NCBI GenBank assembly: GCA_038143065.1
Contig: JAYQLI010000033.1
Span: forward strand, 37,906-101,905
DNA from: Rhodospirillales bacterium
GTDB lineage: Bacteria; Pseudomonadota; Alphaproteobacteria; Bin95
Direction of reading: 5' to 3'
Length of the DNA: 64,000 nucleotides
Shown: positions 12,237 through 44,571 of the stretch, in pieces
How the letters are laid out: every line of letters starts with the position of its first letter
Position numbering within the stretch: the first letter of the stretch is position 1
Translations under genes and position numbers: made by a program
Notes under the pieces: model-generated
The model's database searches: none
The model's input: the letters and a program-made list of their open reading frames with translations, nothing else
What the model was told of the DNA's origin: nothing

Positions 12237-12319
12237 CGTCGCACCGGAGGCGATCAACCGGCTAGCCCCTGAATAGGCCAGCAACAAAGATCGCCAGTGC
12301 CATTCGCAGGCACCGAGAT

Positions 12320-24360: not shown

Positions 24361-24425
24361 CAGTTGGTTAGAGCAGCGGAATCATAATCCGCGTGTCGGG
24401 GGTTCAAGTCCCTCCTCCGCTACCA
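24361..24425 (+). repeat. att site: 65-bp 3' copy of tRNA-Met
   Basis: CAGTTGGTTAGAGC...CCGCTACCA, one mismatch versus 12332-12396; 5' acceptor stem missing. Confidence 0.95.
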
Positions 24426-24567
24426 TTTCTTTCAATATTATCAATAATTTACAACGTCTCAAAAATCATTTTGAGGCGATTTTTTCATTACACACCTCTT
24501 ACACACTTTTTGGTTGGCTTCCAGTCGCTCCAGACTATATCGTTTTTATAGTGATTGGATGTGTTAG

Positions 24568-25105
24568 ATGCCTGTTTTGCGTGAAGATTCTGTGTTGATT
24601 ATGGATGGAGCTGTAAAGCTCTACAGGCGTGAGAGAAGCCGCAAATGGCAGGCAGCCTTCCAAATAGACGGCCAATACATTCGCATTTCAACTGGCAAGA
24701 GTGATTTGGACGAAGCCAAACAGGCTGCCTCTGACAGCTATTTGGAGTACAAGTTTCGACAAAAGAATGGCGTGCCAGTTGTTTCAAAGCGGTTCTCAGA
24801 TGTAGCTAAACTGTGCATCACAGAAATGTACAAGCAGCTGGAAAGTGGCGTTGGTAAGAGGTCTATCGCGATTATGTGATCGTGCTTGAGAAATATCTTA
24901 TTCCGTTCTTTGGCAAGATGCATGTAACAAGCATAACCTACGAAACACTCCAAAAGTTTGCACGCTGGCGCGAACAGCAGATGGGCAGGGAGCCCAAAGC
25001 ATCAACGCTGAACACACATAACTCTGCTCTTAACAGAGTGTTTGATGAGAGTGTTGCGCGCGGCTTTATGAACAAAACACAGGTGCCAACACTGATCAAC
25101 AAGGG
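24568..25105 (+). pseudogene. 5' half of a tyrosine integrase near-identical to 44572-45808
   Basis: Co-linear with 44572-45110 up to ...AACAAGGG, then similarity stops; catalytic domain absent. Confidence 0.92.
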
Positions 25106-25481: not shown

Positions 25482-25647
25482 CGCGGATCTTGCTTGATGG
25501 GTGGACTGATTCAACCCCAACAAATTCAATCCCATCTTTACCCATACATATTTAGTAATAATTAGACAGGTAAGGTTTCGTGGAACGTAAGAATGATGTT
25601 ACGCTTAATTAGTAAAAGTAAGCATTGGAAATGTGCGAAATAGAAAT

Positions 25648-27866
25648 ATGAAGATGGGTTTACAGATTCGTGTAAGAGGACAGGTTCAAGGGGTTGGTTT
25701 CCGACCCTTTGTATGGCGTGAGGCGCGTTCACTTGGCCTTGTGGGTGACGTCAAAAATGATAAGGAAGGTGTGCTTATCCACGTATCTGGCAATGCAATG
25801 CATGATCTGCCTGATGCGATCCGCACTTCTGCACCGCCATTGTGCGAGATCCATGGCATTGAGGTCACCGAGATGGTATGCGCGCCATCAGACCAGTTTA
25901 GGATACTGGTGTCTGGCGATGAAGGGGCGGAAACATCCTGTCCGCCGGATGCCCCATTTGCTCGGCCTGCATTGATGAGGTAAGTCAGGCGGGACGAAGG
26001 GCAGATTACGCTTTACTAACTGCACCAATTGCGGGCCGCGCTTTACGATTGTCGAACGTCTTCCCTATGATCGGCACAGGACGACGATGCGTAATTTCGA
26101 TATTTGCGAAGACTGTCGCGCCGAGTACGAAAATCCTCTTGACCGCAGATTTCATGCTCAACCTATTGCCTGTCCCAACTGTGGACCTCTCCTGACAATA
26201 AAACCCTATGCAGCTAATCCACTTGACGCTGCGTCATCACGAATTTGCAATGGAGAAATTGTTGCCGTCAAGGGATTGGGTGGGTTTCACCTAGCTTGTG
26301 ATGCGACGAACGCTGATGTTGTGCAATCCCTGCGGACACGCAAGCACCGTCCTTCCAAACCCTTTGCATTGATGGCCGATCTTGAAACCATTAGACAATT
26401 CACAGACCCATCGGATGAGGAGATAGATCTGCTGACCGGTCCCGACGCGCCAATTGTCTTGCTGGATAAAGTCAGTGGCAGACTTCCTGAGTCTATTGCG
26501 CCGGCCTTGTCACGACATGGGTGGATGTTGCCCTACACCCCTTGCATTGGCTTCTGTCCAAAAAGGTAGGGCGCCCGCTGATCATGACATCTGGGAATCT
26601 GAGTAAAGAGCCGCAGGTTATGGATAATGACGAGGCATTAGAAAAGCTCGCGCATATTGCTGACAGTTTTGTCCTGCACAATCGCCCGATAGCCCGCCGG
26701 GTTGACGACAGTGTTGTTCTGCCAACGCCATCAACGCCAATGGTTCTGCGCCGGGCGCGGGGGCAAACCCCTGGAACTCTTGCCTTGCCCATAAGCCTTC
26801 CAGACCGTCAAGTTGCCGCCTACGGCGCGGAATTGAAATCAGCCATTTGTTTGACGAAAAATGGTAGGGCGATGTTGTCGCATCATATGGGAGATTTGGA
26901 TAATGTCCTTGCCTATGAAGACTTCCTCAAAGCGGATCGGGATTTTGCCAATTTGATGGATCATCAACCGAAGCTGATCGCTGTTGACAGGCATCCAACG
27001 TATCTGTCGTCCAGATATGGCCGTGATCTTGCGGAAAAGGCGGGTCTTGCCTGCGTGGAAGTCCAACATCACCATGCGCATATGGCCGCGGCGCTGGGGG
27101 CACGCGGCTGGGATGGTGAACAGGCCGTCGGTATCATTCTGGATGGTTTGGGTTTTGGTGATGATGAGGCATTTTGGGGCGGTGAAGTTCTGGTCGGGAA
27201 CTATAAAACGTTCCGGCGGGCGGGGCAGTTGTCCTATGCGCCGCTCATTGGTGGTGACAGCGCGCAGCGCGAACCGTGGCGAAATGCGCTGGTTCGCTTG
27301 GACGCAGCTGGCCTCAACGCGGTTGCCGATCTGCTATTTTGCGATTATCCGGTCAGCCAGCTGCGCGCGGTGGCAGGCAAACACGGCCTTCGCACCACCT
27401 TCTAGTTCAGCCGGACGTTTGTTTGATGCCATCGCTGCCTGTCTTGGCATTTTGCCAGCAGGGCAGTCTTTTGAAGGTGAGGCTGCGATGCGGCTGGAAT
27501 CGCTCGCCTCTACGTCGCAAGATGATGGCTGGTACGCGTTAAGATGCTTGGGGGCCTCATTGATGAGCGAACTATTTGAAGAGCTTTTGGCTGACCAGAA
27601 GAGGGCGTTCCAGATGCAACAATCGCAAGACGCTGTCACGGCGGTATTGCGAAAGCATTTTCCGATATGGGGCGTCGCGTGGCGCTGGAGGCAGGTGCGC
27701 AAACAATAGCCATATCTGGCGGGTGTTTCCAAAACCGGTTGCTACTGACCATGGTGGCAGAGGAACTTCGGGAGTTCGAGCTTTGCGGCCCAGGGCCGGT
27801 CCCGATTAATGATGGCGGTCTGGCTTTTGGTCAGAAGCTGTGATTGCTCTGGCACAATCAAGCTGA
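25648..27866 (+). CDS. hypF: carbamoyltransferase HypF (frameshifted)
   Basis: Acylphosphatase GQVQGVGFRPFV, Zn fingers CTNCGPRF/CEDC/RRFHAQPIACPNCGP, KGLGGFHL, QHHHAH, SSAGRLFD, NDGG. Confidence 0.95.
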
Positions 27867-27934
27867 AATAGGGTGTTGGTTGTGTTTCTGATTATTCAAT
27901 TCTGAAGTACCATGCTTTGCAAAAGGAGGTTTTC

Positions 27935-28998
27935 TTGACAAAACCTGAGACACAAGCTGAGACACAAACTGGACAAACCGTCACATTTGCGTCGTGACCG
28001 TGTGACCATGGCCCACGCAGGTGGTGGCAAGGCGATGCGGGATTTGATTGATGGTGTTCGTTTCAGCTTTCGAACTAGACACATCCGAAGATCAGGCGCG
28101 CCTCGTATCGGATGCGATGAGCGAGCACGGTGCAAAACTCGCCTTTACGACTGATGGCTATGTGGTCACGCCGCTTGAGTTCGCCGGTGGTGATATTGGT
28201 AAGCTGGCAATTTGTGGGACTGTTAATGACCTCGCAGTAGGCGGGGCTAAGCCGCTTTGGCTGTCCGCCGGGTTCATCATCGAAGAAGGCTTTGAAATCT
28301 CCGTTTGCGTCGGGTGGTTTCAACAATGGCGTCCGAGGCGAAACGAGCGGATGTTCGTATCGTGACGGGCGATACCAAGGTGGTTGAGCGCGGTTCGGCT
28401 GACGGCCTTTACATCACAACGTCTGGTGTTGGGGTGATTCCGCCGGGCTGCAATCTGGGAGCGATCAGCATCCAAGAGGGCGATGTCGCAATCGTCAACG
28501 GTGTTTTGGGCGATCACGGGGCAGCTATATTGGATGCGCGCGGTGACCTTGCCCTGTCGACAACTGTCGAAAGTGATTGTCAGTCGCTCGCTTTGCTCAT
28601 GCAGGCAGTCATGAGTGCGGCGCCGAACCTGCGGGCGGCACGTGACTTGACGCGTGGTGGTTTGGCGTCTGCCCTTAACGAGATGGCGGAAACGGCCCAG
28701 CTCACTGTAGAAATTAATGAGAGTAAGTTGCCAATCCGGCCTGAGGTTCGCGGCGTGTGTGAAAATACTTGGTCTTGACCCGCTTTATCTTGCCAACGAA
28801 GGCACACTGGTCCTGTTTGTGCCAGAGAATGAAGCAGAAGCTGCGCTGGCATCAATGCGGGCGCAGGACGCTGGCCGTGACGCGGTGGTGATTGGCAAGG
28901 CGCGAAAGAAAGGGCGATTCCGGTCAATGAGGACCTTGTTCGGGGGAGGCGGGTTTGTTGATATGCTCGTTGGTGAACAGCTGCCGAGAATTTGCTGA
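27935..28998 (+). CDS. hypE: carbamoyl dehydratase HypE (frameshifted)
   Basis: [32 protein letters not shown] and C-terminal EQLPRIC. Confidence 0.95.
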
Positions 28999-29022
28999 GT
29001 CTCTTTTAGCTAGGTCTACACC

Positions 29023-30135
29023 CTATCTGGCACCGCCATATTGCCAGTAGGCAGCGCAGGCGCCTTCGGACGAAACCATCAAAGCCCCCAGCGGCATGTC
29101 AGGGGTGCACCTTTCCGAATTGTGGGCATGCAACGGGTTTGACGCGTCCTGTCATGACCTCTCCACAGGCGCACCCTTCTGGCTCTTTTTTAAGCTGTTT
29201 CGTTTTAACCCATAGCCGATGCAAATTTTTCTTCGGCGTCAAATTCCTGTATTTGGCTCGGACCCGTAAACCACTCGCATCTATCTCGCCAAGCCCACGC
29301 CACTCAAATGTAGGTCGTGGTTCAGGACGTCTTCAACAGAGGCGATGCTGATCATATTGCCATCGTCAGGCACGACCCGGGAATACTGGTTTTCAACTTC
29401 TGCACGCCCACTCGCCAATTGTCTTAGGACCGCGAGGATTGACTGCAGCAAGTCGAGCGGTTCAAAGCCGGCCACTACTATAGGTTTGTTGAAATCGCGG
29501 GCAATGAACTCATAGGGCTTTGTGCCAATGACCATCGAGACATGGCCCGGCCCCACAAAGCCGTCGATCATTGAAAGTGGATCTTCCAACAACGCCTTAA
29601 TCGGCGGCGGTACATAATGTGATTGCAGAATATGCTGAAATTTGTGAGCTCTTCACGAGCTGCCTGCTGAATGGCTATTGCCGTAGATGGCGTTGTCGTC
29701 TCAAACCCCAGCCCAAAGAAAACGACTTCTTTGTCGGGCTGACGACGGGCCAACTCCAGCGCGTCGAGAGGCGAATATACCATTCGCACATCAGCGCCAT
29801 CCGCCTTTGCTTGAAAAAGGGATTTTTTGTGCCCGGCACCCGCATCACATCGCCGAAGGTGGTCATGATAACATCGGGGCGTTCGGCGATTTCGACACAA
29901 TCATCTACACGGCTCATGGGCGTACACAGACTGGACAGCCGGGACCGTGGATGAATTCCAATCCGGGAGGGGTCAATTGTCGACCAAAAACGAAAGATGG
30001 CGTGGGTATGGCCGCCATACTTCCATGATGTGGATAGGCTTTTCGGCGGTGGCCCCTAATTCCTCAACACTCTCTCATAGCTGCCAGCAATGATCTGGCT
30101 GCCGATGGATCGCGAAATTCATCGACGAACTTCAT
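29023..30135 (-). CDS. hypD: hydrogenase formation protein HypD (frameshifted)
   Basis: [47 protein letters not shown]. Confidence 0.95.
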
Positions 30136-30421
30136 GTCTGACCTCCAAGGACCTTTCGCTTTCGAACATGGCCTCAAACTCTTCTTGCGCGTCACCCAAC
30201 GCGTGCAGGGTTTGCATGGTTTTTTCGGCTTCTTCCTCGTCGATAATGGCCATAGCGAAACCAACGTGGATCGGGACCCATTTATCAACGAGAGAGGCAA
30301 GACCTTCGCCAGAGACACAGGTGACATTTACCTTACGCTTTACGCCGGATACGTCCGCCAGCGCCAGATTGGCCTCAAAATCGGTTATCTCAACAATACG
30401 ACCAGGAATTCCAAGACACAT
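30119..30421 (-). CDS. hypC: hydrogenase chaperone HypC
   Basis: MCLGIPGRIVE N-terminus and HVGFAM. Confidence 0.95.
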   Translation of the reverse strand: MCLGIPGRIVEITDFEANLALADVSGVKRKVNVTCVSGEGLASLVDKWVPIHVGFAMAIIDEEEAEKTMQTLHALGDAQEEFEAMFESERSLEVRHEVRR

Positions 30422-30542
30422 ACCGTCCTCCAAATTGATAACAGCCCCCCAATTGGTCTTAGGCCAACCTCTACTTAACGAGACGACAATAGCATTGTGT
30501 CCCAAGGGAAAGGTCAACAGGCAACTATCAATCCGAATCTGT

Positions 30543-31544
30543 TCAGATCCTATGCGCGCAACGCCCAAGATCTCGGCGAATTTCATCCTCAGGCAAGTTG
30601 ATCCCGATGAAAACCAGAAAGCTTTTATCTGGTGCTCCGGGCAAGGGGTTCGATGGAGCATATATCGTGAACGATATTGATTAATTGTGGCAGCGGCTCG
30701 TCTGCAAAACACAGGATCCCCTTTACCCTTAGCAAATCTTCGGAATGTCGCATGATCCAGAACGAGAGGATGTCGCGAAACACATCATGATTTAGGGGCG
30801 TGTCAATTTCGATTGAAAAGGACGATATGCCATGGGTGTGATCATGGTCGTGGTCATGGTTGTGGTCATGGTTGTTGGTGTGAAGATGTTCATGGTCGCG
30901 TGAAGATGGTATGGATGGCGTTTTGTCCAGTGGCAGGAACATGGTATCGATCTCGGCCTCCGCGCCCATCACCACAATCTCGGCCAACGGATTTCTAGTC
31001 GCGAGGGTCGTGTAAATCTCGTTCACCTGTTCATTGGTTTCGAGTTCTGATTTGCTGACGACGATCCGGTCTGCCAGCGCAATCTGCTCCGCGGCCTCAA
31101 CGAAACGGACTACCTGATTGCGAATGGCTGGCGCCGCCGCAACACAGATGGTTTGCACCACCTTGATGTCTGATTTCAGGCGCAAGTCACGCGCGACAGT
31201 GCGCAGGATACTACCGGGATCGGCAAGGCCAGAGGTCTCTACGATACACCGCTCTATGCTATCTGTGTCGCGGCGTGTAATGAGTTCAACAAGGGCGGCG
31301 GCGAGGTCATCTTGGACCTCACAACAGACACAGCCATTCGGCAGACTAAGCATTTGCGTACCACCGGACATTGTTCCCAGAATCGCCCCGTCAACATCAA
31401 CATCCCCAAACTCGTTTACGAGCACAGCCGTTCCCGCACCAGCTGGAGATTTGAGATATTTATTGAGGAGAGTTGTTTTTGCCTGCACCGGAGAAAACCA
31501 GTAAGCAGGGTCATCGGAAACATATTGTTTTCTGATTTCAGCAT
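30543..31544 (-). CDS. CobW/COG0523 G3E-family metallochaperone GTPase with His-rich insert
   Basis: Walker A (frameshifted GFLGAGKT), VNEFG, GCVCC, ETSG, DHEHLHTNNHDHNHDHDHDHTH, LRVKG; upstream of and co-oriented with hypCD. Confidence 0.9.
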
Positions 31545-31715
31545 GCTCGTTTTTGAACTCTTATCTGATGAATCGTAAGGCTTTAAAAAATTTGCATTGA
31601 CATTATTTCGTTATTATATGCGCTATGGTGGGGCTTTATTATCTCTCAGAGATACTCGCAATGCTCCACATCGTTAATTTATTCACGCTTAAATGTCCAC
31701 CCAAGGAGAAGAAAA

Positions 31716-32506
31716 ATGAAAATTGCAACTGTCGGAAAAGGCGGGTCTGGCAAGACAACAATCGCTGGCACATTGACTAGGATCTTTGCAGATGACGGCC
31801 GAAAGATGCTTGCCATTGACGGTGACCCCAACCCGAATTTAGCACTCACTCTTGGCATGTCTCGCGACAAATCAGACAACATTACCTACATCCCGGCTTC
31901 AGTTATGAAGCGTGGTGGAAGAGGTGGATGGTGTGGTCCAGATGGTGCCGGCGATCCCGCGCAGAAGAGATTATCGAAAAATATGCTGCGTCAGCTGCTG
32001 ATAATGTGGACCTCATCGTGATGGGGCAACCGGGACATGGTACAGCTGGGTCGGGCTGCATGTGCGCATCGCACAGGGCGGTACGCGGCCTTGTTGCTGA
32101 ACTAACGGATTTTGGCGAGCATACGGTGACCGATATGGAAGCTGGTCTGGAACATCTTAAACGTGGTACCGCGCGCCATGTTGACATGATGCTTATCGTT
32201 GCGGAACCCTATTACCGTTCACTTGAAGCGGGGATGCGTACCGTCGCGCTGGCCAAGGAACTGGGGATAGAACACATCAAGGTTGTAGCAAACAAAGTCC
32301 GTAATAACGAGGACATGGAAGCCATTCAGACCTTCTGCGATCGCCACGAAATGGAAATCATCGGCACAGTTCCTCTTGGACGAAGATATGGTTATGCAGA
32401 GCGACAGGAATTGGCGCCTTTTGATTTTGCGCCCGACTCCTCTGGTGTTTCTTCAATTCGCAAGATCGCGCAGGCCATCGATGAACTTGCCAAACAGCCA
32501 AGTTAA
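31716..32506 (+). CDS. cooC: CooC/AcsF-type nickel-insertion ATPase (frameshifted)
   Basis: GKGGSGKT deviant Walker A, IDGDPNPNL, GCMC (CxC Ni site), DMEAGLEHL, VANKVR. Confidence 0.88.
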
Positions 32507-32914
32507 TGAATATCGGTGACCTGGCAAAGAAACTCTCAGTTTCGACTAAGACTTTGCGGCATTATGAAAAAATAGGCATCCTTCCACAGGCTAACCGCAG
32601 CGATAATGGCTACCGTACATTTTCACGGGGCCGCGGTAGGTCAAGCTCGCTTTATTGTCATGCTGAGACGTCTGGAATTGTCGCTGGAAGAAATACGCCA
32701 ACTTCTTGAGGGTAATCCAGACAGTCTTCGAAAAAACCTGATTAGCATTTTAGATGAAAAGCGCAGAGCCGCCATGGTTGAAGTGGCCGTGTTGCAGGGA
32801 AAAATCGAAGATTTAAATACACGCTCAACCAATCTTGCTACAATGCACAGTGCGATGGGTGGAAGGTGCATATGCCCTTTATTTGGTGAGAACTGTTCAT
32901 GTGACGGAGAATAA
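32506..32914 (+). CDS. MerR family regulator with C-terminal CxC-x6-CxC motif (frameshifted)
   Basis: MNIGDLAKKLSVSTKTLRHYEKIGIL...NGYR; tail CICPLFGENCSCDGE; start overlaps the cooC stop. Confidence 0.88.
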
Positions 32915-32975
32915 GGTCTAGTTTTTGATTATGCATGTTTTGTAAAAAATATTTTAAAAAAATATGAATAATGTG

Positions 32976-33007
32976 TTGACCTTTACCCGAGGGCAATCTG
33001 CCATTGT
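32976..33007 (+). promoter_or_regulatory. MerR-type long-spacer promoter/operator of the hydrogenase operon
   Basis: TTGACC-20 bp-CATTGT with imperfect dyad TTACCC-GA-GGGCAA in the spacer. Confidence 0.65.
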
Positions 33008-33069
33008 TTTGGTGTTTCTACAAACTATCAAGCTATAGTTAAACGCGATCGTATGATGGACATAGCTCA

Positions 33070-34344
33070 ATGGGGGATAAAATGGGTGAAAAAGTTGCAC
33101 GCTTAAAAGCAGAAGTTCCGACAAAAGTTAGCTATCTGCCTAGATTTGGATTGGATGAGGGTCCCGTAACCGAAGTTCATGCTTTCTGGCTGGCTGGTCT
33201 TAGTTGCGACGGTTGTTCCATTGCAGCAGTGGGAGCACAAAATCCGACAGTTGAACAATTGATAAGTGGATCAATTCCCGGCTACCCAAGGTCATTCTTC
33301 ACCACCCGGTATTGTCTGTCACGGTCGGCCATAAGTTTATGGAGGCATATCACGAAGCCAAGAATGGGACGCTTGGTGCACCATATGTTGTCATTCAGGA
33401 AGGGTCAGTCGCTGACGAGGAGATCGCCGGGGGAATTCGGCGGGTACTGGTCTGCTATGGGTGTCACGGTTGATGAGGATGGGACCCAAACTCCAATACC
33501 GACCGCACACTGGCTGCGCGATCTTGCGCCGGGGGCCGCGGCTGTCATAGCTGTTGGAACCTGTGCTACGTGGGGCGGTGTTCCTGCGGCGGCTGGCAAT
33601 CTTACAAATGCCATGTCGGTCATGGATTATCTTGGCAAGGAGTATCTGTCGACCCTCGGTCTGCCGCCGGTGAACATCCCAGGATGCGCCCCGCTCGGTG
33701 ACAACATCACTGAAACGATAACATCAGTTTTGATGTTCCTTGCCGGTTTTGGACCATTGCCTGAGTTCGACGAACTCGGCAGGCCAGCTTGGATGTTCCA
33801 GTCGACTGTGCACCGCGGATGTGTGCGGGCCGGTAATTATGAGGAAGGCAAATTCGCCGACGAGTACGGCCAAAAAGAGTGTCTTGTTGAACTTGGTTGC
33901 TGGGGACCGGTTGTACAATGCAACATGGTATCACGGGGGCCATTGGTCATAATGGGGGTGTATGAACACCGGCGGCATTTGCATCGGTTGCACCATGCCG
34001 GGCTTTCCTGATACATTGCGCCATTTTATAAGCGCCCGCCAGGCACAATGGTGTCTTCAAACATCTCGCAGCACGGGATCGTTCGTTTCCTACTTGCGGA
34101 AATTTACGCAGGACAACCAAAACCTGACAAGTCATTGGAAGAAGACGAGCGAGATTCCCGTCTGGTTGGGCGAATGTTGACGGCCGCCGCGGGTTTGGAA
34201 AGAAGGCGGTCAGCTTCTTCTATGAGAAGTTGAAGAGATCTGGAACGGAATTTACCCTGGCTCACGGCGTCAGCAGGAGCTTCAGAATCTGCTTCGCGGT
34301 ACCTAAATAAAGGCACCACGGAATTCAAGATTGCGGCGGAATAG
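33070..34344 (+). CDS. hylS: [NiFe]-hydrogenase small subunit, group 1l-like (no Tat signal), frameshifted
   Basis: WLAGLSCDGCS, GTCATWGG, NIPGCAP, HRGC...CLVELGCWGPVVQC, GGICIGCT. Confidence 0.9.
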
Positions 34345-34353
34345 GGGGCTGAC

Positions 34354-34658
34354 ATGACTCTTTGGGCGATTGGTTATTTAATAGGTGTAACTGTGGTCCT
34401 CGTCGTTGCATTGCTGCTGATCGGCATCCTACTGCAAAGCGCGGCGCATTCATCGACTGGCTACAGCGGCATCGGCAATTGTGGCCGACATCGACAGCAA
34501 CACCCGCTCCCGTATGGATGCTTGCTGCGACCAATGATGTTGCGAAGAGCCTGCTTGGCGGCGCGGAGGCTGTCCCGAACAGAACGCGATGGCCATCGTC
34601 AACGCTGTCGGCAGAGAGTGGGGATCAAGAACAGATGCAGGAAGAGGAGGTAGTGTAA
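34354..34658 (+). CDS. single-pass membrane protein TM1 (HylTM-like), frameshifted
   Basis: MTLWAIGYLIGVTVVLVVALLLIGILL followed by an amphipathic helix; TAATG overlap with the next gene. Confidence 0.75.
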
Positions 34659-34984
34659 TGGATTTGATTCTTGGAACTGACCCTATCGCAAGCTGGTGGC
34701 TGGCTGTTGCCGTTGTCGCCGTAGTTACGCTTGTTGTTGCAATTTTGTTGGCCCTCGTGATCCGCACTGCCTCGGCAATCAATGACGAAGTTGCCACTGT
34801 TTGGGCTAACGGTCAGAGGGTGGCGAACAACACCATCCATATCGCGGCGCTTTATCAGACCCGTGATTACGTCAAAGGTATCCTTGGACACGCTGGACAC
34901 ATACTGAAACACAGTCAGGCTATTCGCGATCACGCAACGGATTCTTCAAGCCACTCACAGTCTATTTTGCAGAAGGTGAATTGA
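34658..34984 (+). CDS. single-pass membrane protein TM2 (HylTM-like)
   Basis: WWLAVAVVAVVTLVVAILLALVI followed by a helical, His-containing tail. Confidence 0.8.
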   Translation: MDLILGTDPIASWWLAVAVVAVVTLVVAILLALVIRTASAINDEVATVWANGQRVANNTIHIAALYQTRDYVKGILGHAGHILKHSQAIRDHATDSSSHSQSILQKVN

Positions 34985-34985
34985 C

Positions 34986-35280
34986 ATGATTACCATCCTT
35001 ACATTCCTTACATGTCTGGCATCGCTGGCGTTGCTGGTTGTGGTCGCTATCGGTCTGATGCGTATCAACGCAGTGTTGGAGAGCATCGGAGGAACTGGCG
35101 AGCTACCTTGCCAAACTGCGTCTTGGCTTGCGCGCTATCGAGAGAGAAACATCGCATTTGCCGGCCGCTGCCCCGACCCTGAATACAGATTTAGAGGCAA
35201 TTGGCAATGGCTTGACCGCCGTAGATGCAACACTTGGCGAGGTCCATGCAGCCCTTGTGGCACAGGAGGGCCGGTCATGA
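34986..35280 (+). CDS. single-pass membrane protein TM3 (HylTM-like), frameshifted
   Basis: MITILTFLTCLASLALLVVVAIGL...YLAKLRLGLRAIERETSHL; ATGA overlap. Confidence 0.75.
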
Positions 35281-35572
35281 GCACATTAGCTTTGACGATC
35301 TGGATCACTACTCTCGTTGTCGTTGTTGTCGCTGTTGTGCCGCTTGCCTTATCGTTGCTTGCGCGCGCGCTTCGCAATGCGAGATCGATTGAGGTTACCT
35401 TTCTGACATGCTTGACGCAGGCGTCAAGATCGTTGGCCACACAGAGGCAGTGACCGCGCTAGATCAAACGCTATCAGCTGCTAGAGGACTTCAGGCTGTG
35501 GCACCCGCTATCGAGGAGAAAACCGGCGTTGTCGCAGATATTATTTCAAAACGGGCCGAGGGGAATGCGTGA
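35277..35572 (+). CDS. single-pass membrane protein TM4 (HylTM-like), frameshifted
   Basis: MSTLALTIWITTLVVVVVAVVPLALSLL followed by a helix; TGATG overlap. Confidence 0.75.
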
Positions 35573-35847
35573 TGATTACAATTCTAGCTTTTGCCACGTT
35601 GGCCGTCGTTCTGATCATCGTGCTGGTGGTCGCCTATCACCTGATCGGCATTTTTGTATCTTTAAAGCGTGGTGCTAACCACCTCGAAGCCCTGGCGGGC
35701 GGTCTGATTGCCATACGCGATAATACGATACCGCTGAACGGACGGGTGGATGAAATTAATGCTGGATTGACCGGCTTAGTGGAGCCACTCCTGGCAACAA
35801 ATAGCAACCTAGGCACGATTGTGAAGATCACTAGTGGCAGGTCGTAA
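35572..35847 (+). CDS. single-pass membrane protein TM5 (HylTM-like)
   Basis: MITILAFATLAVVLIIVLVVAYHLIGI...LAGGLIAIRDNTIPL. Confidence 0.8.
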   Translation: MITILAFATLAVVLIIVLVVAYHLIGIFVSLKRGANHLEALAGGLIAIRDNTIPLNGRVDEINAGLTGLVEPLLATNSNLGTIVKITSGRS

Positions 35848-35876
35848 ACCTAAATCAAAAGAAGAGGAATCTTTTA

Positions 35877-37746
35877 ATGTGCTTTGAAAATCTCCCAATC
35901 GAATTTGATAAGGATGGGAATGCATTTCTTAAGGACGGTATTCGCAATCCCTATGAATATCAGACGCGTACGATTGAAGAGCGCAATGCCAAGCTGAAAG
36001 AAGTTGCCGTAAAAAACGGACAGCTTGCTGATGTGGATTTCGACCCAGTTACCCGAGTTGCGGGCGCTCTGGCATTCCACTCAACGGTTGACCTCAAGAA
36101 AGGCACCGTCCTTGAGACTAATGCGATGGCTACATTGTTCCGTGGCTATGAGGTGATCCTGCGCGGTCGCGATCCGCGTGACGCTGCTTTTATCTCATCG
36201 CGCGCTTGTGGTGTTTGCGGTGGGGTACATTCGTACATCGGCGCTGTCAATTGAGATGGCTCTCGACATTAAGCCGCCTCCAATGGGCATTGTGGTTCGC
36301 AACCTGTTGCTTTCTTGTGAATATCTCTATGACAACCCGCTTCACCTCTTTGTGTTGTCAGGACCAGATTTTCTGAATCGCTGGTGAAGATGACCAATCC
36401 GGAAATCTGGGAAAAGGCTAAAAGCGCGGCTGCACCGGGGTATGAGACGCACGGTTATAAAAAGATTTCTGAGATTATGAGTGATCTTAATCCGCTTACC
36501 GGAAAGCTGTATCTTGAAGCTCTGAACATGACCCGCGTCGCGCGTGAAGTATATGTACTTTTGGGTGGTAAGTATCCACACCCTGAGACAATCATTCCGG
36601 GCGGTGTTACAACCACCATAACGACAACGACTTTCAACGAATTCTATCTGAAGATGTCGCAGTTTTTTGATTATGCGAAGAAATGTGTGGCCATCTGGGA
36701 TGACGTATTCGACTTCTTCTACGAGTGCGATCCGCGCTACAAAGGATGTTGGCAGAATTCCCGCGACGATGGTCGATTTTGGTCAGTGGGACCATGAGGA
36801 CCATTACGATGCGAGCTATGAGAACTGCAATGAGTGGGGTGAGAAGCGGTGGTCGACACCCGGCGTTGTCATCGACGGCAAGCTGGTCACCACTCGCCTG
36901 ACGGACATCAATGTTGGTTTGGAAGAGTTTGTCGAGCATTCGTACTATGAGAAATGGGAGGATTATCCCTTCAAAACAGACCCACTCGGCAATCCGCTGT
37001 CTCCGAACCACCCATGGAATAAAACGACCATTCCACGGCCAGGTGCGCAGAACTGGAAAGAGCGTTACAGTTGGTCTACCACACCAACTTGGGACCGACA
37101 GACGTTCGAAGCTGGCGCTTATGCAAGGATGTATATTTCGGCTCTTGCTCAGAAAATTCCGCATAGTGAGTATTTCGAGTCCACTGGCCACAGCATGAAG
37201 TTGAACATCCCGAAGGCTAACCTGCCGGAAGCCAACCTCGAATGGAATGTTCCGGATGTCTGGAACGCGTTTGAGCGTAACCGGGCGCGGGCCTATGCGG
37301 TTGCGTTCCAACCTTCTTGTGACCATGGAAAACCTTACTCGTGCTCTTGATCTTCAAAAGAAGGGTGAAACTCAGGTTGCGACCCCATTTGAAATTCCAA
37401 AGAAAGGCCATTCCATAGGTGTTGGTTTCTGGGGGCTGGACGGGGCTTCCTCAGTCATCACTGCGAGATTAAAGATGGGCTGCTGGCTAACTATCAGATA
37501 GTGACGCCCTCGACGGTGAATGCCTGTCCGGCAACTCCGTGGGGGGCGGTCCGTATGAAGGCTGTGTTGAATACACCGATTATCGAAACAACGTTCAAGG
37601 ACGAGAGCGACTTCCAGGGTATTGATATCCTTCGGGCGTTGCGCTCATTTGATCCTTGTATGCCTTGCACCACGCACGTGATGGTTGAGGGATCTGACCG
37701 GGTTGTTACCCGTGAGGTGACCACATGTGCCTGTGGTATTGATTGA
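35877..37746 (+). CDS. hylL: [NiFe]-hydrogenase large subunit, group 1l-like, frameshifted
   Basis: MCFENLPIEFD, FDPVTRVAG, FRGYE, L1 SRACGVCGGVH, L2 RSFDPCMPCTTH, then a tail ending CACGID. Confidence 0.93.
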
Positions 37747-37754
37747 CACGGCAC

Positions 37755-38402
37755 ATGGACGCGCCAACGGTAATGGTGGGGATCGTAGGGTACTCAGCGG
37801 TGGTGAAAGCTATCCGCTGGGACCTCACTTGCTGGAAGAGCTCGAAGCGATCTTTGGTGAAGACCCAAATGTGATACTTGAGAATTTCACATGGAGCCCT
37901 GTACATATCGTACAACGTTTGCAGGGCGGAGAAATGGAGCGACCCGACCGGGTTATTCTGGTCGGTCTCGCAGCAGACACCAATAAGCCCGGCACAGTAT
38001 CCGCGCATCGCTGGATTGGTGGATCACAGCCGGAAGTCATGGTGCAGGAACGTATTTACGAGGCTGTCACAGGCATCGTCGATCTAGAAAACACGTTGAT
38101 GATCGGCAGCTATTTTAAGGTGTGGCCAACGGAATGCCTGACAGTGGAGGTCGATCTTGCCGCTGACACGTTCGGGCGTTTGGTCATGGCTGAGAATGGT
38201 GGCAGGGACAGCGAAAGAATTGGAGCGCGAACTTGGATATTCGCCCATTGCTGTCAGGAAACAGATGGTGGAGGCAGTCAGGTCGCTGGTATTGAACGGA
38301 ATTGCGGCGAAGGATCCGGTTCTAAAAGACAAGGACGCCGATATGCTGTCGCCAATTCGTTCCTTTTCAGAAACGCATGTAGCTAACTTGTTAGGAGACT
38401 AG
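37755..38402 (+). CDS. divergent hydrogenase maturation protease-like protein, frameshifted
   Basis: ENFTWSPVHIVQRL...DRVILVG...ERIYEAVTGIVDLENTL...WP.ECLTVEV resembles the HybD/HupD fold; directly follows the large subunit. Confidence 0.55.
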
Positions 38403-38405
38403 GAG

Positions 38406-38764
38406 ATGAGCCAAGATAAAGAATCTGTAGCGCTCGACAGGATGATTGTCCGCGAAGACGTGCTGCAGATTTGTTACTGGTTTCAGGGTGAGGGGGTTTT
38501 GGCAATAGTTTTACGCCACAATCCGTCATGCCGTTCCTGCAAAATAATATTGATGTCGTGACTGAAGTGATGAGTGATCTTTCTAAGGATGGTACACTGA
38601 CCTTTGAAAATGGTGCTTACAGCTTCAGCGACGGCGGCAAGCGGCAGGCCGGCGCCATGTTCTATGACAGTTTCACTGAATTCCAGCAGGGAACCCACGG
38701 CGAATGCAACGCAGGTTGTTGTGATGGCGACGAGGTTTGCGATCACGAACACCATCACCATTAA
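38406..38764 (+). CDS. small helical (winged-helix-like) protein with Cys/His-rich tail, frameshifted
   Basis: REDVLQICYWFQGEG...YSFSDGGKRQA...HGECNAGCCDGDEVCDHEHHHH. Confidence 0.7.
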
Positions 38765-38778
38765 GGACAAGTGAGTCG

Positions 38779-39502
38779 ATGCAGATTGAAGACACGGAGC
38801 AGTCGTTGGTCGGTTACCGCACCAACGAGGAATGGCAGGATTTGCTGGCGCAGGCTGCAACGATGCTGGGCGCGCTGGATGAAATCGAAGACGAGGCAAC
38901 CCGCCAAAAGGTATTTTCCGCGATGGCGTGAAATTGATTCTGTCCATCGTGAAGCATTACATCGTCTGGTCCGACTTTTCAAAGAAGGCGTTCTTGAACA
39001 GGTTGTGACCGACCCGGCAATCAATTCTTTAATGGGAATGTATGACCTTCTTCCGCCTGAAACGCCCGGCTGTGCCAAGGTCTGGGATTTTATGGGGAAC
39101 GATGATGACGCTGACTCTGTGAGCCAGGAACAGGCGGTATCGGCAAGCGAGGTTACCATCCTGCCCCACTGGTCACCCGCACCGCCAAATGCGGTCGTCG
39201 AGGAAGGGTCTGCATATATATGTGAGATGGAAGAGGCGCGCGTCCTGCTTGTGCGTGTCGATGGCAATGATTATGCGCTGGAAGCAGAATGCCCAATTCA
39301 TAAAAAGTCTTTTGCCGACGGCCGGCTCGACAAGATGTTGTGGCACTGCGGTGAGGGGCCGGGATGTAGCTATGATATTCGCAACGGCAAGCGGTTGGGC
39401 GGCGGACAGGGTCTTAATTGTTTCCCGGTACGTGTTGAATCCGATGGTCGACGCATGATCGGCTTCGGAGTTCCGTTTGAACCCAAACTACCAGCTTTTT
39501 AA
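38779..39502 (+). CDS. hydrogenase accessory protein: helical N-domain plus degenerate Rieske-like domain
   Basis: HREALHRLVRL...DPAINSLMGMYDLLP; C-terminal ECPIH...CGEGPGCSYDIRNG...LNCFPVRVE. Confidence 0.65.
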
Positions 39503-39505
39503 AAA

Positions 39506-40011
39506 ATGGCGATCTTGGTTTCAGGTGTTGGTAATGAATTGAAAGGAGATGACGCCTTCCGGAATTCGTGCTGTGCAATGTCTGGATGATGACCCAAGGA
39601 AGCCTGAAAAGCTGCGTAACCCAACAAACAGGTATCGGTGGCATACATCTGGTTCAGGAATTGATGCGTGGGTATGAACTACTCATTCTGTTTGATGCAT
39701 TTGATCGTGGCGGCTCGCCAGGTGATCTGTGGTTGCTGGAACCTGATCTACCAAAGGCAGAAGAGATGACCCACGGTGAGCGCCGCGACTATTTCGCGGA
39801 TGTGCATTACGCGACACCCGTAAGGGCGTTGACACTGGCGCAGTCGGTGGGAGCCTTGCCCCCGCTGGTCCGCATAATCGGCTGTCAGCCTCAACAACTG
39901 GACACATTTGATACCGAGATGCACCAAACGGTGGCTGCTGCAGTGCCAAAAGCAGTTGATATGGCAATCGAAGTCATAGTCCAACTCGAGAAAAGGCAGA
40001 ATAAGGGGTAA
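39506..40011 (+). CDS. hydrogenase maturation endopeptidase (HupD/HybD family), frameshifted
   Basis: VSGVGNELKGDD, GIGGIHLVQEL, ILFDA, DVHY, IIGCQP. Confidence 0.88.
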
Positions 40012-40040
40012 AAAACAAAAACTTTACAAGGAGGGTAGGA

Positions 40041-41131
40041 ATGTTTATGCAACAAAAGCCTAACAAAATGTCCACGATAGTCGCATTACTTGCTTGCATA
40101 AGTACAGGGGCAGCCGCGGACCAAATCAGCATTGTTGATCAGCGTGATCGCACCGTCACGCTTGATGGTGAAGCAAAACGCGTTGTCACCATCCCAATTC
40201 CGGCAGCATCGATGTTTATCTCGGTTGATGGTGGTACAGACCGCCTCGTTGCTATGCACCAGTTGTCAAAAACGGCGATCAAAGGCCGTATCTTGCAACG
40301 GTTCTACCCTGATGCCCTGTCCATTCCATCGAACATCACAGGTAAGGGTTTTAGCTTTGTTCCTAATGCAGAAAGGCTTTTGGCCCTCGAACCCGATCTT
40401 GTGTTCCAGTGGGGACATCTGAATGATGACATCATCGACCCCCTAGTCAATGCAGGTCTGAACGTGGCGTTGATCAAGATTGGTCCCGAGGCCGCCACCC
40501 GCAAATGGCTGAACATCATGGGCACGGTGACCGGCAAGCCTGAAAAGGCAAAGGCGATGATCAAATGGCGTGACGAGGTCATGGCAAGAATTGAAAACTG
40601 CTACAGCGGATATCGCTGATGACCAAAAGCCGCGCACGCTCTATTTCATGAATTACCTGTCGAAACTTCGTGTGGCAGGCGGTCCATCCTACAACAATTT
40701 CTATATCAATCTGGCCGGTGGCAAGAATCCAGCGCGTGAATTGGGAATGTTCCAAGAAGTGGGTATCGAACAAGTCATCGCCTGGGATCCGGAAGTCATT
40801 CTGCTTAACGGTTTCGAAGCCAAACTGAGCCCACAGGATGTTTACAACAATCCCAATTTGGCGGATGTGGCTGCGGTCAAGAACCGCCGTGTCTACAAGA
40901 TGCCGCTTGGCGGTATCGCGCTGGGACCCGCCTAATCAGGAAAGCCCGCTGACATGGCTCTGGCTGTCGATGATCCTGCATCCCGAAAAATTTAAGTGGG
41001 ACATGTACGAGCGTATCAACAGCGGTATCAACTCATGTACGGTCAGGATGTTTCGAAGGATGATGTAGAGAACATCCTTCGTTTTGACATGAACGCAGAT
41101 GCTGCTAATTATGATATGTTTTCAGGGCTAG
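40041..41131 (+). CDS. type II ABC transporter substrate-binding protein (siderophore/B12/metal-chelate class), frameshifted
   Basis: Signal peptide, DQRDRTVTL, NAERLLALEPDLV, EQVIAWDPEVI, AVKNRRVYKMP. Confidence 0.85.
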
Positions 41132-41140
41132 GCCTATTGA

Positions 41141-42181
41141 ATGAACCTCAATGCAAAAACAATAGTCCCAGCCGCTGTTAAGCGGCTGGGGATAATGAGG
41201 TTTTTGTTAGGCGCTCTTGGGATTTCCATCGTGATCTCCCTTGGCATTGGGCGCTTTTGGCGTGCCGATTGCTCACGTAGCCGCCATTCTGCTTGATGGC
41301 ATTATCCCCTTGGAGCCAACTTGGAAACCTGTTGAGGAACGTGTTGTTGAACTAATCCGTATGCCCCGCATCCTGATTGCCGGGCTTGCCGGCGCAGGGC
41401 TTGCCGTGGCTGGTGCCGCGCTGCAGGGGGTTTGCAATCCCGCTGGTGGGGCCGCAGATCATCGGTGTGTCATCCGGTGCTGCTTTCGGTGGTTCTTTTG
41501 CAATTCTGATATCCGAAAGCCAATTCATATTGATCGGGGCGGCATTTGGTTCTGGAATTCTGGCGATGGTGATTGTCTACGCGGTCAGCCCGGCAGCAAG
41601 GACGCGCCTCAATCCTTATGCTGGTGCTTTCGGGAATTGTGACCAGCGCGTTTCTTTCGCCGTGATTTCAGTACCAAATTCGTTGCCGACCTGACGATAA
41701 ACTGCCAGCCATCGTTTTCTGGTTGATGGGTAGTTTTGCATCTGCAAGCTATGAAAAAGGTGGCGCTGATAGGCATTCCGGTGGCAATCGGAACCATCGT
41801 TATCTATCTCATGCGCTTTCAGATCAACGTACTGTCCTTGGTGATGAGGAGGCCCAGTCCTTGGGGCTGAAGGTTGAAAGGACACGCTGGATTGCTCTTG
41901 TGGCGGTGGCATTGATCAGTGCGGCTGTAGTTGCCGCTGCGGGTATCGTTGGCTGGTTGGACTGGTGATTCCACATTTTGCGCGAATGCTTACCGGCCCG
42001 GATCACCGGGTTCTGATACCGGCGTCGGCGTTGATTGGGGGGGTATATTTGATTCATGTCGACAATGTCGCCAGAGCGTCTATCGCGGCGGAAATACCTG
42101 TGGGCATTATTACCGCCATGCTTGGCGCGCCAGTCTGCCTTTTATTGCGCCGCGCTGCCAACAGGTTGGTCGTCCAAATGA
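41141..42181 (+). CDS. FecCD/BtuC-type permease, frameshifted
   Basis: [48 protein letters not shown]. Confidence 0.88.
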
Positions 42182-42909
42182 TCAAGGTTCAACAGGCTGC
42201 TTTTCGGTATAGTGACGAATGGGTGTTTCGTAACGTCAGTTTCACCTTGGCCAAGGGGCAGACCGCGGCAATTCTTGGGCCGAACGGCAAGGGCAAGACC
42301 ACACTTTTGAAATCCATTATTGGACTGCATCCTCTAGCCGAGGGATCAGCCGAAACCGTTGGCCAAATAGGATATGTCGCCCAGAAAAACGACATTGCCT
42401 TTTCCTACAAAGTGATTGATGTCGTCGTGATGGGACGCGCGGCGCATATTGGTTTGTTTCAAACACCAAGCCATAAGGATTATCAGATCTGAGGCATACT
42501 CTGGATCGACTTGGGATCAGTGATTTTGCCGAAAGGATATTCAGCCAGCTTTCGGGCGGCGAGCGTCAGCTGGTCATGATTGCACGGGCGCCTCAGATGT
42601 GGTGCTGGTGATGGATGAACCAACATCTGCGTTAGATTTCTTCAATCAGGCACTGATCATGAAGACTTTACGCCGGATCAGTGCGGAAGACGGGTTAACA
42701 GTCCTCATAACGACGCATGTGCCCCAGCAGGTACAAGTGCTGGCGGACAGGGTTTTGTTAATGTACGCGCCCGACGGGCAGGGTGAGAACTGGACAGGAC
42801 ATGCTGTCGGAGGAAAAATTGGAAGAGGCTTTATGGTGTGCCTATCAAATCGATAACGCTTCAGCATGAGGGCAACAGCATTTCAGCGCTTGTCCCGTTA
42901 TTTATCTAA
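42178..42909 (+). CDS. ABC transporter ATPase (FepC/BtuD-like), frameshifted
   Basis: [28 protein letters not shown]. Confidence 0.88.
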
Positions 42910-42931
42910 CCCCATCGACCGTCCGAAACGG

Positions 42932-43559
42932 TCATTTGTCTGTGTCGATGCGGGCTGCGATGAAGGCGTCCATGCTTTCACAATTTTTTGACAGTGCGGC
43001 GATTGACGGGAAGTCACTATCTGGAAGCGTTGCAGGGAAAATATGATTTACGAAGCTGAAAGCAGTCGCGCAGGTGATATCTGTCTGTAACAGGCTGTTC
43101 CCGTCAAATAATCCTTGCCTTTGAGCTTTTGCTCCAACAACTCAAACCCTTGTTTGCACTGCCGTAATAGCCTGTCTATACGCCCGGGTTCAGGAACAGC
43201 GCGACGGCGTTCGGCGTTTGCGGTCATTGAACGGTCGATTGCACCCGTGGTAACTGCCAATATCTGCAAGGCTTCGCGGCGGCGTTCGCCCGAGATAGGG
43301 ACCAGTGCGCGCGCCGGTCCAGCAGCCTCGTCATAATGATCAAGGATAGCGGAGCTTTCAATCAGTATTTTGCCGTTTTCAAGCTGTAATGCCGGCACCC
43401 TGCCTACCGGGTTTACCGCTTCGCGTTTTTCTTCGTCATCGACGGCCGATATCACCGAGTGTTCAAAAGAGATACCAGAATGTTGAGAGAAATACCAACC
43501 CGGCGAACATAGGGTGAGAGGAACCTGCCAAACAGGATGGGCGCATCGTTTTTCATCAT
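42932..43559 (-). CDS. glutathione S-transferase family protein, frameshifted
   Basis: SPYVRRV, NPVGRVPAL, ILIESSAILDH. Confidence 0.85.
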
Positions 43560-44387: not shown

Positions 44388-44429
44388 ATAATCCGCGTGT
44401 CGGGGGTTCGAGTCCCTCCTCCGCTACCA
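44388..44429 (+). repeat. att site: 42-bp 3' copy of tRNA-Met
   Basis: ATAATCCGCGTGTCGGGGGTTCGAGTCCCTCCTCCGCTACCA identical to the tRNA 3' end. Confidence 0.95.
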
Positions 44430-44571
44430 TTTCTTTCAATAATATCAATGAATTTAGCGTCTCAAAAATCGATTTTGAGGCGATTTTTCCATTACACACC
44501 TCTTACACACTTTTTGGTTGGCTTCCAGACGCTCCAGACTATATCGTTTTTATAGTGATTGGATGTGTCAG

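Follow-up and report, generated by a model that had tools for sequence, protein, structure and literature searches.

The DNA analyzed here is a 64,000-nucleotide stretch of contig JAYQLI010000033.1 from a Rhodospirillales bacterium (hereafter the window, which lies on contig C33 of our genome record G000). Between approximately 24.4 and 44.4 kb, it carries an island with genes for a [NiFe]-hydrogenase of the group 1l (Hyl) type, the maturation factors HypC, HypD, HypE and HypF, a CooC-type ATPase and a COG0523/CobW-type GTPase. In Antarctic soils, group 1l enzymes are the dominant H2-scavenging hydrogenases, and they also form a major type in marine waters; Hyl is an O2-tolerant, hydrogen-consuming enzyme. 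To our knowledge, HypA and HypB are treated as universal in [NiFe]-hydrogenase maturation. Neither was found in this genome, and comparison across the group 1l family points to the CooC-type ATPase as the probable nickel insertase in their place.

Gene content and hydrogenase type

The ruler for gene calls was the cluster of the isolate Pseudaestuariivita atlantica (locus L012), which is intact and syntenic with the island. With it, tblastn located the genes listed in a preliminary description of the window at the places assigned to them there (Table 1). The motifs quoted in that description, which are GKGGSGKT, GCMC and DMEAGLEH for CooC and GCVCC with a His insert for CobW, are visible in the translations. 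For the MerR-family regulator of P. atlantica, the nearest NCBIfam models are CadR, ZntR and CueR, all of them under their cut-offs.

Table 1. Features of the hydrogenase island and its borders (positions are those of the window; L012 is the P. atlantica cluster; ABC, ATP-binding cassette; ORFs, open reading frames; att, attachment site)
Feature	Position	Strand	Evidence
attL: tRNA-Met 3' fragment, left end of island	24361..24450	+	DNA match and repeat D3
Tyrosine-integrase gene, 5' part	24568..25105	+	repeats D1, D2; second copy at 44518-45110
hypF (carbamoyltransferase)	25660-27840	+	tblastn, L012 residues 42-771/780 in 3 frames; Pfam HypF domains on L012
hypE	27966-28995	+	tblastn, residues 21-365/365, 74% identity, 4 frame segments; AIRS/AIRS_C
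hypD	29014-30135	-	tblastn, residues 1-378; PF01924
hypC	30137-30421	-	tblastn, 80% identity; L012 protein PF01455, TIGR00074
COG0523/CobW-type GTPase (GCVCC, His-rich insert)	~30558-31535, 5' end approximate	-	translation, tblastn (30558-31479)
CooC-family ATPase (GKGGSGKT, GCMC, DMEAGLEH), candidate nickel insertase	31716-32494	+	tblastn, 81% to L012 CooC
MerR-family metal-type regulator, Cys-rich C-terminus	32506-32902	+	tblastn; L012 protein PF13411/PF00376
hylS, small subunit	33082-34341	+	tblastn, residues 1-419; PF14720 and PF01058 on L012
HylTM1-5, five small single-pass membrane protein genes	34345-35844	+	small ORFs; L012 counterparts
hylL, [NiFe] large subunit (RACGVC, DPCMPCTTH, C-terminal extension)	35877-37743	+	tblastn to P0001 residues 1-626
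U216, 216-residue conserved protein	37755-38396	+	no Pfam family; weakly HybD/HycI-like fold
U119, 119-residue winged-helix protein, Cys/His-rich tail	38406-38761	+	conserved in loci
hylE, Rieske-type protein	38737-39499	+	tblastn; weak Rieske ferredoxin NCBIfam matches
hupD, maturation endopeptidase	39506-40008	+	tblastn (39506-39978); L012 PF01750, TIGR00072
ABC importer: FecB/BtuF-type binding protein, FecCD permease, ATPase	40065-42903	+	tblastn; L012 PF01497, PF01032, PF00005
Glutathione S-transferase fragment	43048..43455	-	Pfam GST_N; last gene syntenic with L012, where it follows the ABC genes
attR: tRNA-Met 3' fragment, then next integrase gene	44388..44454	+	DNA match and repeat D3

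Group 1l clusters are described in passages of Ortiz et al. (bioRxiv 10.1101/2020.08.06.239558) as an ordered set comprising the small subunit, five single-pass membrane proteins, the large subunit, two conserved unknowns, a Rieske protein and an endopeptidase. The island has the same architecture. Five small membrane genes separate hylS from hylL, and each of their five P. atlantica counterparts encodes an N-terminal hydrophobic segment, while a Rieske-type HylE and HupD are encoded downstream, as they are in 52 and 54, respectively, of the 56 fetched loci with enough downstream DNA. HylL is 65-100% identical to the large subunits of 80 loci with the Hyl gene order, which come from Proteobacteria, Bacteroidota, Chloroflexota, SAR324 and others, and 39.5-43.9% identical to plasmid-borne group 1h enzymes (~42% to that of Cupriavidus necator), where the criterion for group 1l lies under ~40%. 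Judged by architecture and identities, the island appears to carry a complete group 1l [NiFe]-hydrogenase system.

Every island gene is interrupted in the window. The longest open reading frame (ORF) between 23 and 46 kb spans 313 amino acids, stop-to-stop translations scatter the hydrogenase and hyp pieces over changing frames, and HylL shows at least five frame changes relative to a 626-residue orthologue, with high similarity between the breaks. Taken at face value, these interruptions would describe a decaying pseudogene cluster without function in its host. However, identity to intact orthologues remains high between the shifts, and contigs of public runs do not share the breaks. Twenty public runs from 16 studies, one of them possibly the source of the assembly, contain 0.61-0.85 of the sampled 31-mers of 30600-38400, and we aligned contigs from four runs of four studies to 25600-43000. 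A single contig crosses this whole region (17.4 kb) with 59 substitutions and 127 gaps relative to the window. The island has 109 indel places, of which 12 were listed and 97 more counted, for an indel error of ~0.7%. The 12 listed corrections are common to every covering run (four of four at 11 places, and three at 27971, which run X19 does not cover). Among them are two places in the cobW P-loop (31476 and 31490) and two in cooC (31917 and 31963), and the breaks occur in the window only. Because the runs agree among themselves against the window, we attribute the frameshifts to errors of this assembly; by this comparison, the island is intact in nature. The breaks being confined to one assembly, we rejected the pseudogene reading, which has become hardly credible.

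The rest of the assembly shows related signs of error. In its 2.86-Mb contig, 77% of bases lie in ORFs of at least 200 amino acids; five of the 51 small contigs were measured at 22-51%, with C33 itself at 51%. The ureG gene on the main contig (C35:1694024-1694595) is likewise broken by frame changes. The fragmentation of ORFs on small contigs and the broken ureG suggest that gene calls from this assembly are unreliable throughout.

HypA and HypB in the genome and in the group 1l family

Genome G000 is 97.6% complete with 5.53% contamination. Profile searches of the whole genome gave no match to HypA (PF01155) and four to HypB (TIGR00073), none over the cut-off; the best of these (37.4 vs 121.2 bits) is UreG, a protein that its own model matches at 225.8 bits. 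We also ran tblastn at E <= 10 with four HypA and four HypB queries taken from other group 1l genomes. The lowest E value among the HypA matches was 0.73, and the HypB queries recovered only the UreG locus. Nor did the genome contain a match to the prismane/CooS family (PF03063). hylL is its sole PF00374 locus, so that no second large subunit of this family accompanies it (models for groups 3 and 4 were not used), and four further COG0523 paralogues are encoded elsewhere. The preliminary description had reported no HypA, HypB or CO dehydrogenase gene in the island and had left room for hypAB elsewhere; by profile and tblastn search, the absence of hypAB now extends to the whole genome, as does that of CO dehydrogenase by PF03063.

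We considered whether hypA and hypB are present and were missed, either because the assembly is fragmented and rich in errors or because the bin mixes organisms and the contig comes from another one. At the indel rate of the island, a 113-residue HypA could be cut so as to drop below threshold, UreG is broken even on the main contig, and the contamination estimate leaves space for a foreign contig. However, fragments of a HypB-type protein should still score, as the broken UreG does, the eight tblastn queries found nothing, and HypB is also absent from most other group 1l genomes, including isolates and closed chromosomes (below). We therefore consider an overlooked pair very unlikely.

Our survey covered 79 of at least 525 group 1l genomes, taken as the best tblastn matches and consisting mostly of metagenome-assembled genomes (MAGs). 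HypB was searched in a first set of 50 and a second set of 29, HypA and genome-wide CooC in the first set, and other hydrogenases were sought as PF00374 large subunits; groups 3 and 4, whose models were not used, also require HypAB. HypB scored over the cut-off in 12 of the 79 genomes (6/50 and 6/29) and was absent from 67. HypA was matched at E <= 0.001 in 10 of 50, nine of which exceeded the cut-off (five over the full profile and four partially). Ten of the 12 HypB-positive genomes encode an additional, non-1l large subunit, and in six (G001, G003, G015, G019, G030 and G514) it lies on one contig with hypB. By comparison, none of the 44 HypB-negative genomes of the first set has a non-1l large subunit, with G038 carrying two 1l copies. 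The HypB-negative genomes include isolates (records of L018, L023, L024, L031 and L079) and closed chromosomes (L015, L040, L048 and L064). Within the fetched loci, hypA and hypB occur together in one of 80 (L052) and in none of the 23 with full 10-kb flanks. The finding of HypB in just 12 of 79 genomes also speaks to the concern that most cooC-bearing group 1l loci might contain hypAB, which they do not. In contrast, the cluster of the sister group 1h on C. necator plasmid pHG1 has annotated hypA and hypB and no cooC. The preliminary description had treated non-canonical maturation as a trait of this mobile copy; the survey instead suggests that it is common to the whole group 1l family.

A CooC-type ATPase as candidate nickel insertase

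The CooC orthologue of P. atlantica has 260 residues and is about 80% identical to that of the window. Its domain matches are general ones to the MinD/ParA class (CbiA, Fer4_NifH and ParA/NUBPL in Pfam, with MinD as the top NCBIfam model), and the closest protein of solved structure is CooC1 of Carboxydothermus hydrogenoformans (PDB 3kje), matched at E 8.1e-34 across residues 1-227, to whose CxC motif the GCMC aligns. The next relatives in the PDB are MinD proteins, from E 8e-11 (~1e-10), and a Thermococcus Mrp-type protein (3vx3, E 4.1e-4). CooC1 binds Ni at its CxC site in a nucleotide-dependent dimer. Across 41 aligned sequences of the group 1l protein, residues G7, K8, G9, G10, G12, K13, T14 and T15 are invariant, as are C114, C116 and H119, which gives both features of the CooC family: a deviant Walker A motif, GKGGxGK[ST], with the signature lysine, and a CxC motif formed by C114 and C116 that aligns to that of CooC1. 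The genetic association with a Ni,Fe-CO dehydrogenase or acetyl-CoA synthase that is typical of the family is missing, and the neighbors are instead hydrogenase and hyp genes. In public records the protein is named 'AAA family ATPase', 'CO dehydrogenase maturation factor' or 'CooC'.

This protein accompanies the hydrogenase across the family. Of 50 group 1l genomes, 48 encode an orthologue (E <= 7e-59, 43-100% identity), which in almost every case shares a contig with hylL. In 20 of the 23 full-flank loci it lies within 10 kb of hylL; the other three distances are 13 kb, 13.5 kb and 1.2 Mb. A sample of 400 other genomes, drawn evenly from the phylum and taken without regard to group 1l status, gave a single match at E <= 1e-30, with 35% identity, which is not counted as an orthologue (0 of 400). 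Six Bacteroidota-type loci have cooC next to hypC and in the same orientation; the genes run hypC-cooC-hypF-hypD-hypE in L081 and hypD-hypE-cooC-U119 in SAR324 (L072). This slot in the hyp operon is one often held by hypA or hypB. When CooC and HylL of 44 loci are compared, their pairwise identities (946 pairs, not independent of one another) correlate with r = 0.94. A predicted complex of HylL with the CooC-like protein scored 0.00, 0.33 and 0.00 against a mark of 0.32, which we counted neither for nor against an interaction. In a Chloroflexota MAG, two CooC-like paralogues (G047:C18:10944-12552, on the contig of L084) lie ~5 kb downstream of the group 1l hydrogenase; they are 30-37% identical, and one contains two in-frame TGA codons.

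The first cysteine codon of the CxC motif is TGA in three loci: L072 (SAR324, at L072:13298), L077 (unclassified bacterium, L077:14577) and L084 (Chloroflexota, L084:2020). A fourth gene, cooC of G040 (G040:C60:6282-7037), has one in-frame TGA, whose location within the gene was not inspected. SelB scored over its curated cut-off in all four TGA-bearing genomes but not in the control G044, which has the cysteine form. The position of the TGA and the presence of SelB make it likely that this codon is read as selenocysteine. When the stretches following this codon in the three cooC genes were searched for a selenocysteine insertion sequence, folding each one singly yielded z-scores of +1.0, -0.5 and -3.1, and a three-sequence consensus gave a weak hairpin of 6 pairs (-3.4 kcal/mol). 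Alternation between cysteine and selenocysteine indicates a residue that does chemistry, at either a metal or a redox site.

The absence of HypB from most of the genomes surveyed, the presence of CooC in 48 of 50 genomes, its setting in hyp operons and its invariant CxC together suggest that the CooC-type ATPase is probably the nickel insertase of Hyl in place of HypA and HypB, in this island and family-wide. Thus, of the earlier proposal that CooC and/or CobW replace HypAB, the CooC part has gained support. Under this model, the Fe(CN)2CO unit would be assembled and supplied by HypC, HypD, HypE and HypF, as it is for all [NiFe]-hydrogenases. The CooC-family MinD-type ATPase would bind Ni at its CxC across an ATP-dependent dimer, by analogy with CooC1, and pass it to HylL. 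In the last step, HupD would cleave off the C-terminal extension of HylL, given that both the extension and the protease gene are retained; the endopeptidase cuts the large subunit only after Ni insertion. In the proteobacterial branch, the COG0523 GTPase, the MerR regulator and the ABC importer would be additions that plausibly supply or buffer metal, which is the weakest step of the model. In its broadest form, for which the chances seem to us about even, all group 1l hydrogenases would mature without HypA and HypB, with a dedicated CooC clade bearing a Cys or selenocysteine site as the sole Ni insertase. This would be a third independent solution to the problem, in which U119 could act as a donor or sensor.

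The other part of the earlier proposal, concerning CobW, fared less well. The COG0523/CobW GTPase could be the real substitute for HypB in this island, with CooC in a secondary role: its gene is directly upstream of and co-oriented with hypC-hypD both here and in P. atlantica, it carries a CxCC motif and a His-rich insert, and it belongs to the same GTPase class (PF02492) as HypB and UreG. The P. atlantica protein matches PF02492 (2.8e-41) and CobW_C (PF07683, 1.3e-14), has YjiA as its best PDB match (E 1.4e-36) and falls below the cut-off of every named NCBIfam subfamily; the COG0523 motif GC[VI]CC is conserved across 24 sequences. However, cobW occurs in just 26 of 80 loci (12 of 23 with full flanks), all of them proteobacterial, and in none of the Bacteroidota, Chloroflexota or SAR324 loci, which are themselves without HypAB. 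The linker that contains the histidines varies in length, with a His-rich stretch that differs between orthologues and that some of them lack, and the window protein is about 55-57% identical to that of P. atlantica, compared with ~80% for CooC. The distribution across loci suggests that CobW is a clade-restricted accessory that cannot be the general replacement for HypAB, and we regard its service as the HypB substitute here as quite unlikely. Of the 80 loci, 45 have a MerR gene and 12 the ABC importer. By their distribution, all three are branch-specific additions, and they plausibly supply, buffer or sense metal, which is the weakest part of our reading; in other bacteria, nickel is handled by importers of the FecDE/CeuE type and by MerR-type regulators.

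Alternatively, the CooC-like ATPase may serve another step of Hyl biogenesis, such as Fe-S delivery to HylS or MinD-type positioning and assembly with the HylTM proteins, while Ni reaches HylL without a dedicated insertase or through generic chaperones. The protein does belong to the MinD/ParA/Mrp class by the domain matches given above, and relatives such as Mrp, NBP35 and ApbC handle iron-sulfur clusters. Group 1l enzymes have unusual membrane partners and an altered proximal-cluster ligand, as passages of Ortiz et al. (bioRxiv 10.1101/2020.08.06.239558) describe. In L052, cooC stands alongside hypAB, and the present genome has UreG and the four other COG0523 paralogues. Nevertheless, CooC1 is by far the best solved relative, ahead of MinD and 3vx3, and its CxC is aligned, whereas Mrp and NBP35 proteins use CxxC. 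Furthermore, cooC in Bacteroidota and SAR324 lies among hypC, hypF, hypD and hypE rather than beside hylS or the membrane protein genes, and the alternation of Cys and selenocysteine at the first position of the CxC suggests that metal binding or redox chemistry takes place there. A role in another step thus appears rather unlikely.

Several observations nonetheless count against the CooC-type ATPase as a family-wide insertase. The support for its role consists of co-occurrence, context and homology. Canonical HypB depends on HypA for its access to the large subunit, and the conserved unknowns include no HypA analogue, U119 and U216 being unlike HypA. The mutual exclusion of cooC and hypAB, for which a survey had been suggested, is not strict: in L052, a Rubrivivax MAG, hypB and hypA lie inside the 1l cluster at +5.8 to +6.6 kb from hylL, together with cooC, and this genome has a second large subunit on another contig. 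Two genomes, G040 (a 14.9-Mb bin) and G495, are HypB-positive, and neither gave a second PF00374 match. Unexplained partial matches to HypA, limited to profile positions 1-66, occur in the HypB-negative genomes G011, G022 and G025. Most of the 79 genomes are incomplete MAGs, which makes single absences weak. The CooC orthologue is missing from two of 50 genomes, both fragmentary bins, and in G039 (the record of L064, a closed chromosome) cooC lies 1.2 Mb from hylL. Finally, passages of one study report that marine isolates with group 1l enzymes consumed no H2, which suggests that activity of such clusters is not assured.

Two of these cases have further details. The partial HypA-like matches (G011:C1:83904-84101, G022:C22:45181-45378 and G025:C143:620-808) are in ORFs of 121-191 amino acids away from the hydrogenase locus. 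In G039, no hyp gene lies within 10 kb of the hydrogenase, an arrangement which indicates that the Hyl system can be dispersed.

The two conserved proteins encoded after hylL were also examined. U216 is encoded in all 56 loci with enough downstream DNA; it has no PDB sequence match and no Pfam family, and its model (predicted local distance difference test, pLDDT, 94.3) weakly resembles HybD/HycI endopeptidases (template modeling scores of 0.34-0.47; for HybD 1cfz, E 6e-4 and scores of 0.34/0.44). U119, encoded in 55 of these 56 loci, has invariant H97, C100, C104 and C105 in an alignment (A3) from 66 related loci. Its model is a winged helix with a disordered tail containing His and Cys (pLDDT 81) and weak MarR/MntR-type matches (best E 2.9e-3), and in SAR324 its gene directly follows cooC. 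U119 could therefore be a metal or nickel sensor or a nickel donor. As hidden HypA analogues, both proteins were rejected, given the winged helix of one, the weak HybD/HycI matches of the other and no HypA among the listed fold matches.

Island borders, precedents and implications

The attachment sites that had been placed near 24425 and 44388 were recovered as the two copies of a 67-nucleotide direct repeat, D3 (24384-24450 and 44388-44454), which derives from tRNA-Met and is accompanied by an integrase gene. Window positions 24361-24429 (G000:C33:62266-62334) match 12332-12400 at 99%, and 44388-44433 match 12355-12400 at 100%. ARAGORN found just two full tRNA-Met genes, at 12320-12396 and 57245-57321; the fragments are recognizable through their DNA match to the full tRNA rather than with ARAGORN, and an Rfam scan of 23000-46000 at E <= 0.01 gave no match. 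Each D3 copy is followed by ~650 nucleotides of one repeated integrase gene (repeats D1 and D2, 94-96% identity). The second copy has weak matches to phage-integrase SAM-like/N-terminal and central domains (E 3e-4), and the attL-side copy, which shares just the first ~540 nucleotides with it, may be truncated. No [NiFe] large subunit was found at E <= 1e-20 in 40 relatives (9 of the same genus, 15 of the same family and 16 of the same class). The defining features of a tRNA-integrating island, namely repeats of the tRNA 3' end, an adjacent tyrosine integrase and absence from relatives, are thus all present, and the 24.4-44.4-kb segment is, as read from the DNA, a ~20-kb island integrated at a tRNA-Met gene. 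The full tRNA, two 3' fragments and second full tRNA-Met in the window indicate that the hydrogenase block is one unit of a tandem island array at tRNA-Met.

Horizontal acquisition and mobility of the hydrogenase island are supported by the tRNA-Met fragments on both flanks, the integrase gene, the absence from relatives and the confinement of hypD (PF01924) to the island within its genome. The closest HylL proteins are from Rhodobacterales-type alphaproteobacteria (92% identity over the fragment searched), and identity to that of P. atlantica averages ~78% over the full length in the error-containing window. A plasmid collection contained only group 1h relatives, at <44% identity, and no group 1l plasmid. 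Window positions 1-12300 showed no DNA similarity in 25 relatives (9 of the same genus) except at tRNA-Met, so that the contig may be wholly accessory DNA or lie outside the main chromosome. Linkage to the main chromosome is likewise unproven, and this too counts against our reading, C33 being a noisy small contig in a 52-contig assembly with the contamination noted above. The preceding unit (~12.4-24.4 kb) contains a block of 61-64% guanine plus cytosine at 14-20 kb, compared with 47% for the genome. Upstream of attL are fragments of an rve-type transposase (22228-22692, minus strand) and of a phage-integrase catalytic domain (23311-23706, minus strand).

The closest described counterpart of the island is the group 1l cluster of Hymenobacter roseosalivarius, which passages of Ortiz et al. 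(bioRxiv 10.1101/2020.08.06.239558) give in the same order: HylS, HylTM1-5, HylL, two unlabelled genes, the Rieske protein (named HylE there) and HupD. The present copy differs in being proteobacterial, in lying on a tRNA-Met island and in its added cobW, merR and ABC importer. Main-text passages of that paper contain no mention of maturation genes, HypA/HypB or a CooC-type gene, a statement that does not extend to its supplementary Table S7 of neighboring genes. Canonical systems, including the group 1h cluster of C. necator pHG1, share HypC/D/E/F, the Cys motifs of the large subunit and a C-terminal extension with its protease, but differ from the island and from the 67 HypB-less group 1l genomes in having hypA and hypB and, on pHG1, in having no cooC. 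Relative to CooC1 (3kje), the group 1l protein is of the same family, with the deviant Walker A motif GKGGxGKT and the aligned CxC, but the island genome has no CooS/prismane gene, and the linkage seen in 48 of 50 genomes is to hydrogenase and hyp genes. The CooC-like match found in the phylum sample is just ~35% identical.

The nearest precedent in principle is in Thermococcus kodakarensis, where a MinD-class ATPase stands in for a G3E GTPase. PDB entries 3vx3 and 5aun are its Mrp/MinD-type HypB, which replaces the GTPase HypB in hydrogenase Ni insertion. This protein is a weak match (E 4.1e-4) and works together with HypA, which is absent here. The GTPase of the island shares CobW and CobW_C domains, the CxCC motif and a His-rich linker with COG0523 metallochaperones such as YjiA, ZigA and CobW, and differs from them in adjoining hypC-hypD.

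We found no statement in the literature that group 1l hydrogenases lack HypA/HypB or use CooC, although supplementary tables may list the gene. A passage of a Nitrosococcus paper offers the general speculation that the place of an absent HypB might be taken by UreG or some other protein. A recent review names six Hyp proteins (A-F) as necessary, and a term search of it found no passage on exceptions. Whereas the hydrogenase type, CooC, COG0523 proteins and a MinD-class ATPase serving as HypB in Thermococcales are already known, what appears to be new, on comparative grounds, is that group 1l lacks HypA/HypB and carries a dedicated CooC clade.

If the CooC-type ATPase is indeed the nickel insertase of Hyl, the roles of CooC proteins would extend beyond CO dehydrogenase and acetyl-CoA synthase, and the label 'CO dehydrogenase maturation factor' would be misleading for thousands of records and could lead to false inferences of CO metabolism. 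The alternation of Cys and selenocysteine at the CxC would add a selenoprotein to metallochaperone biology, and the genes described here would provide the gene list for heterologous production of O2-tolerant, high-affinity hydrogenases.

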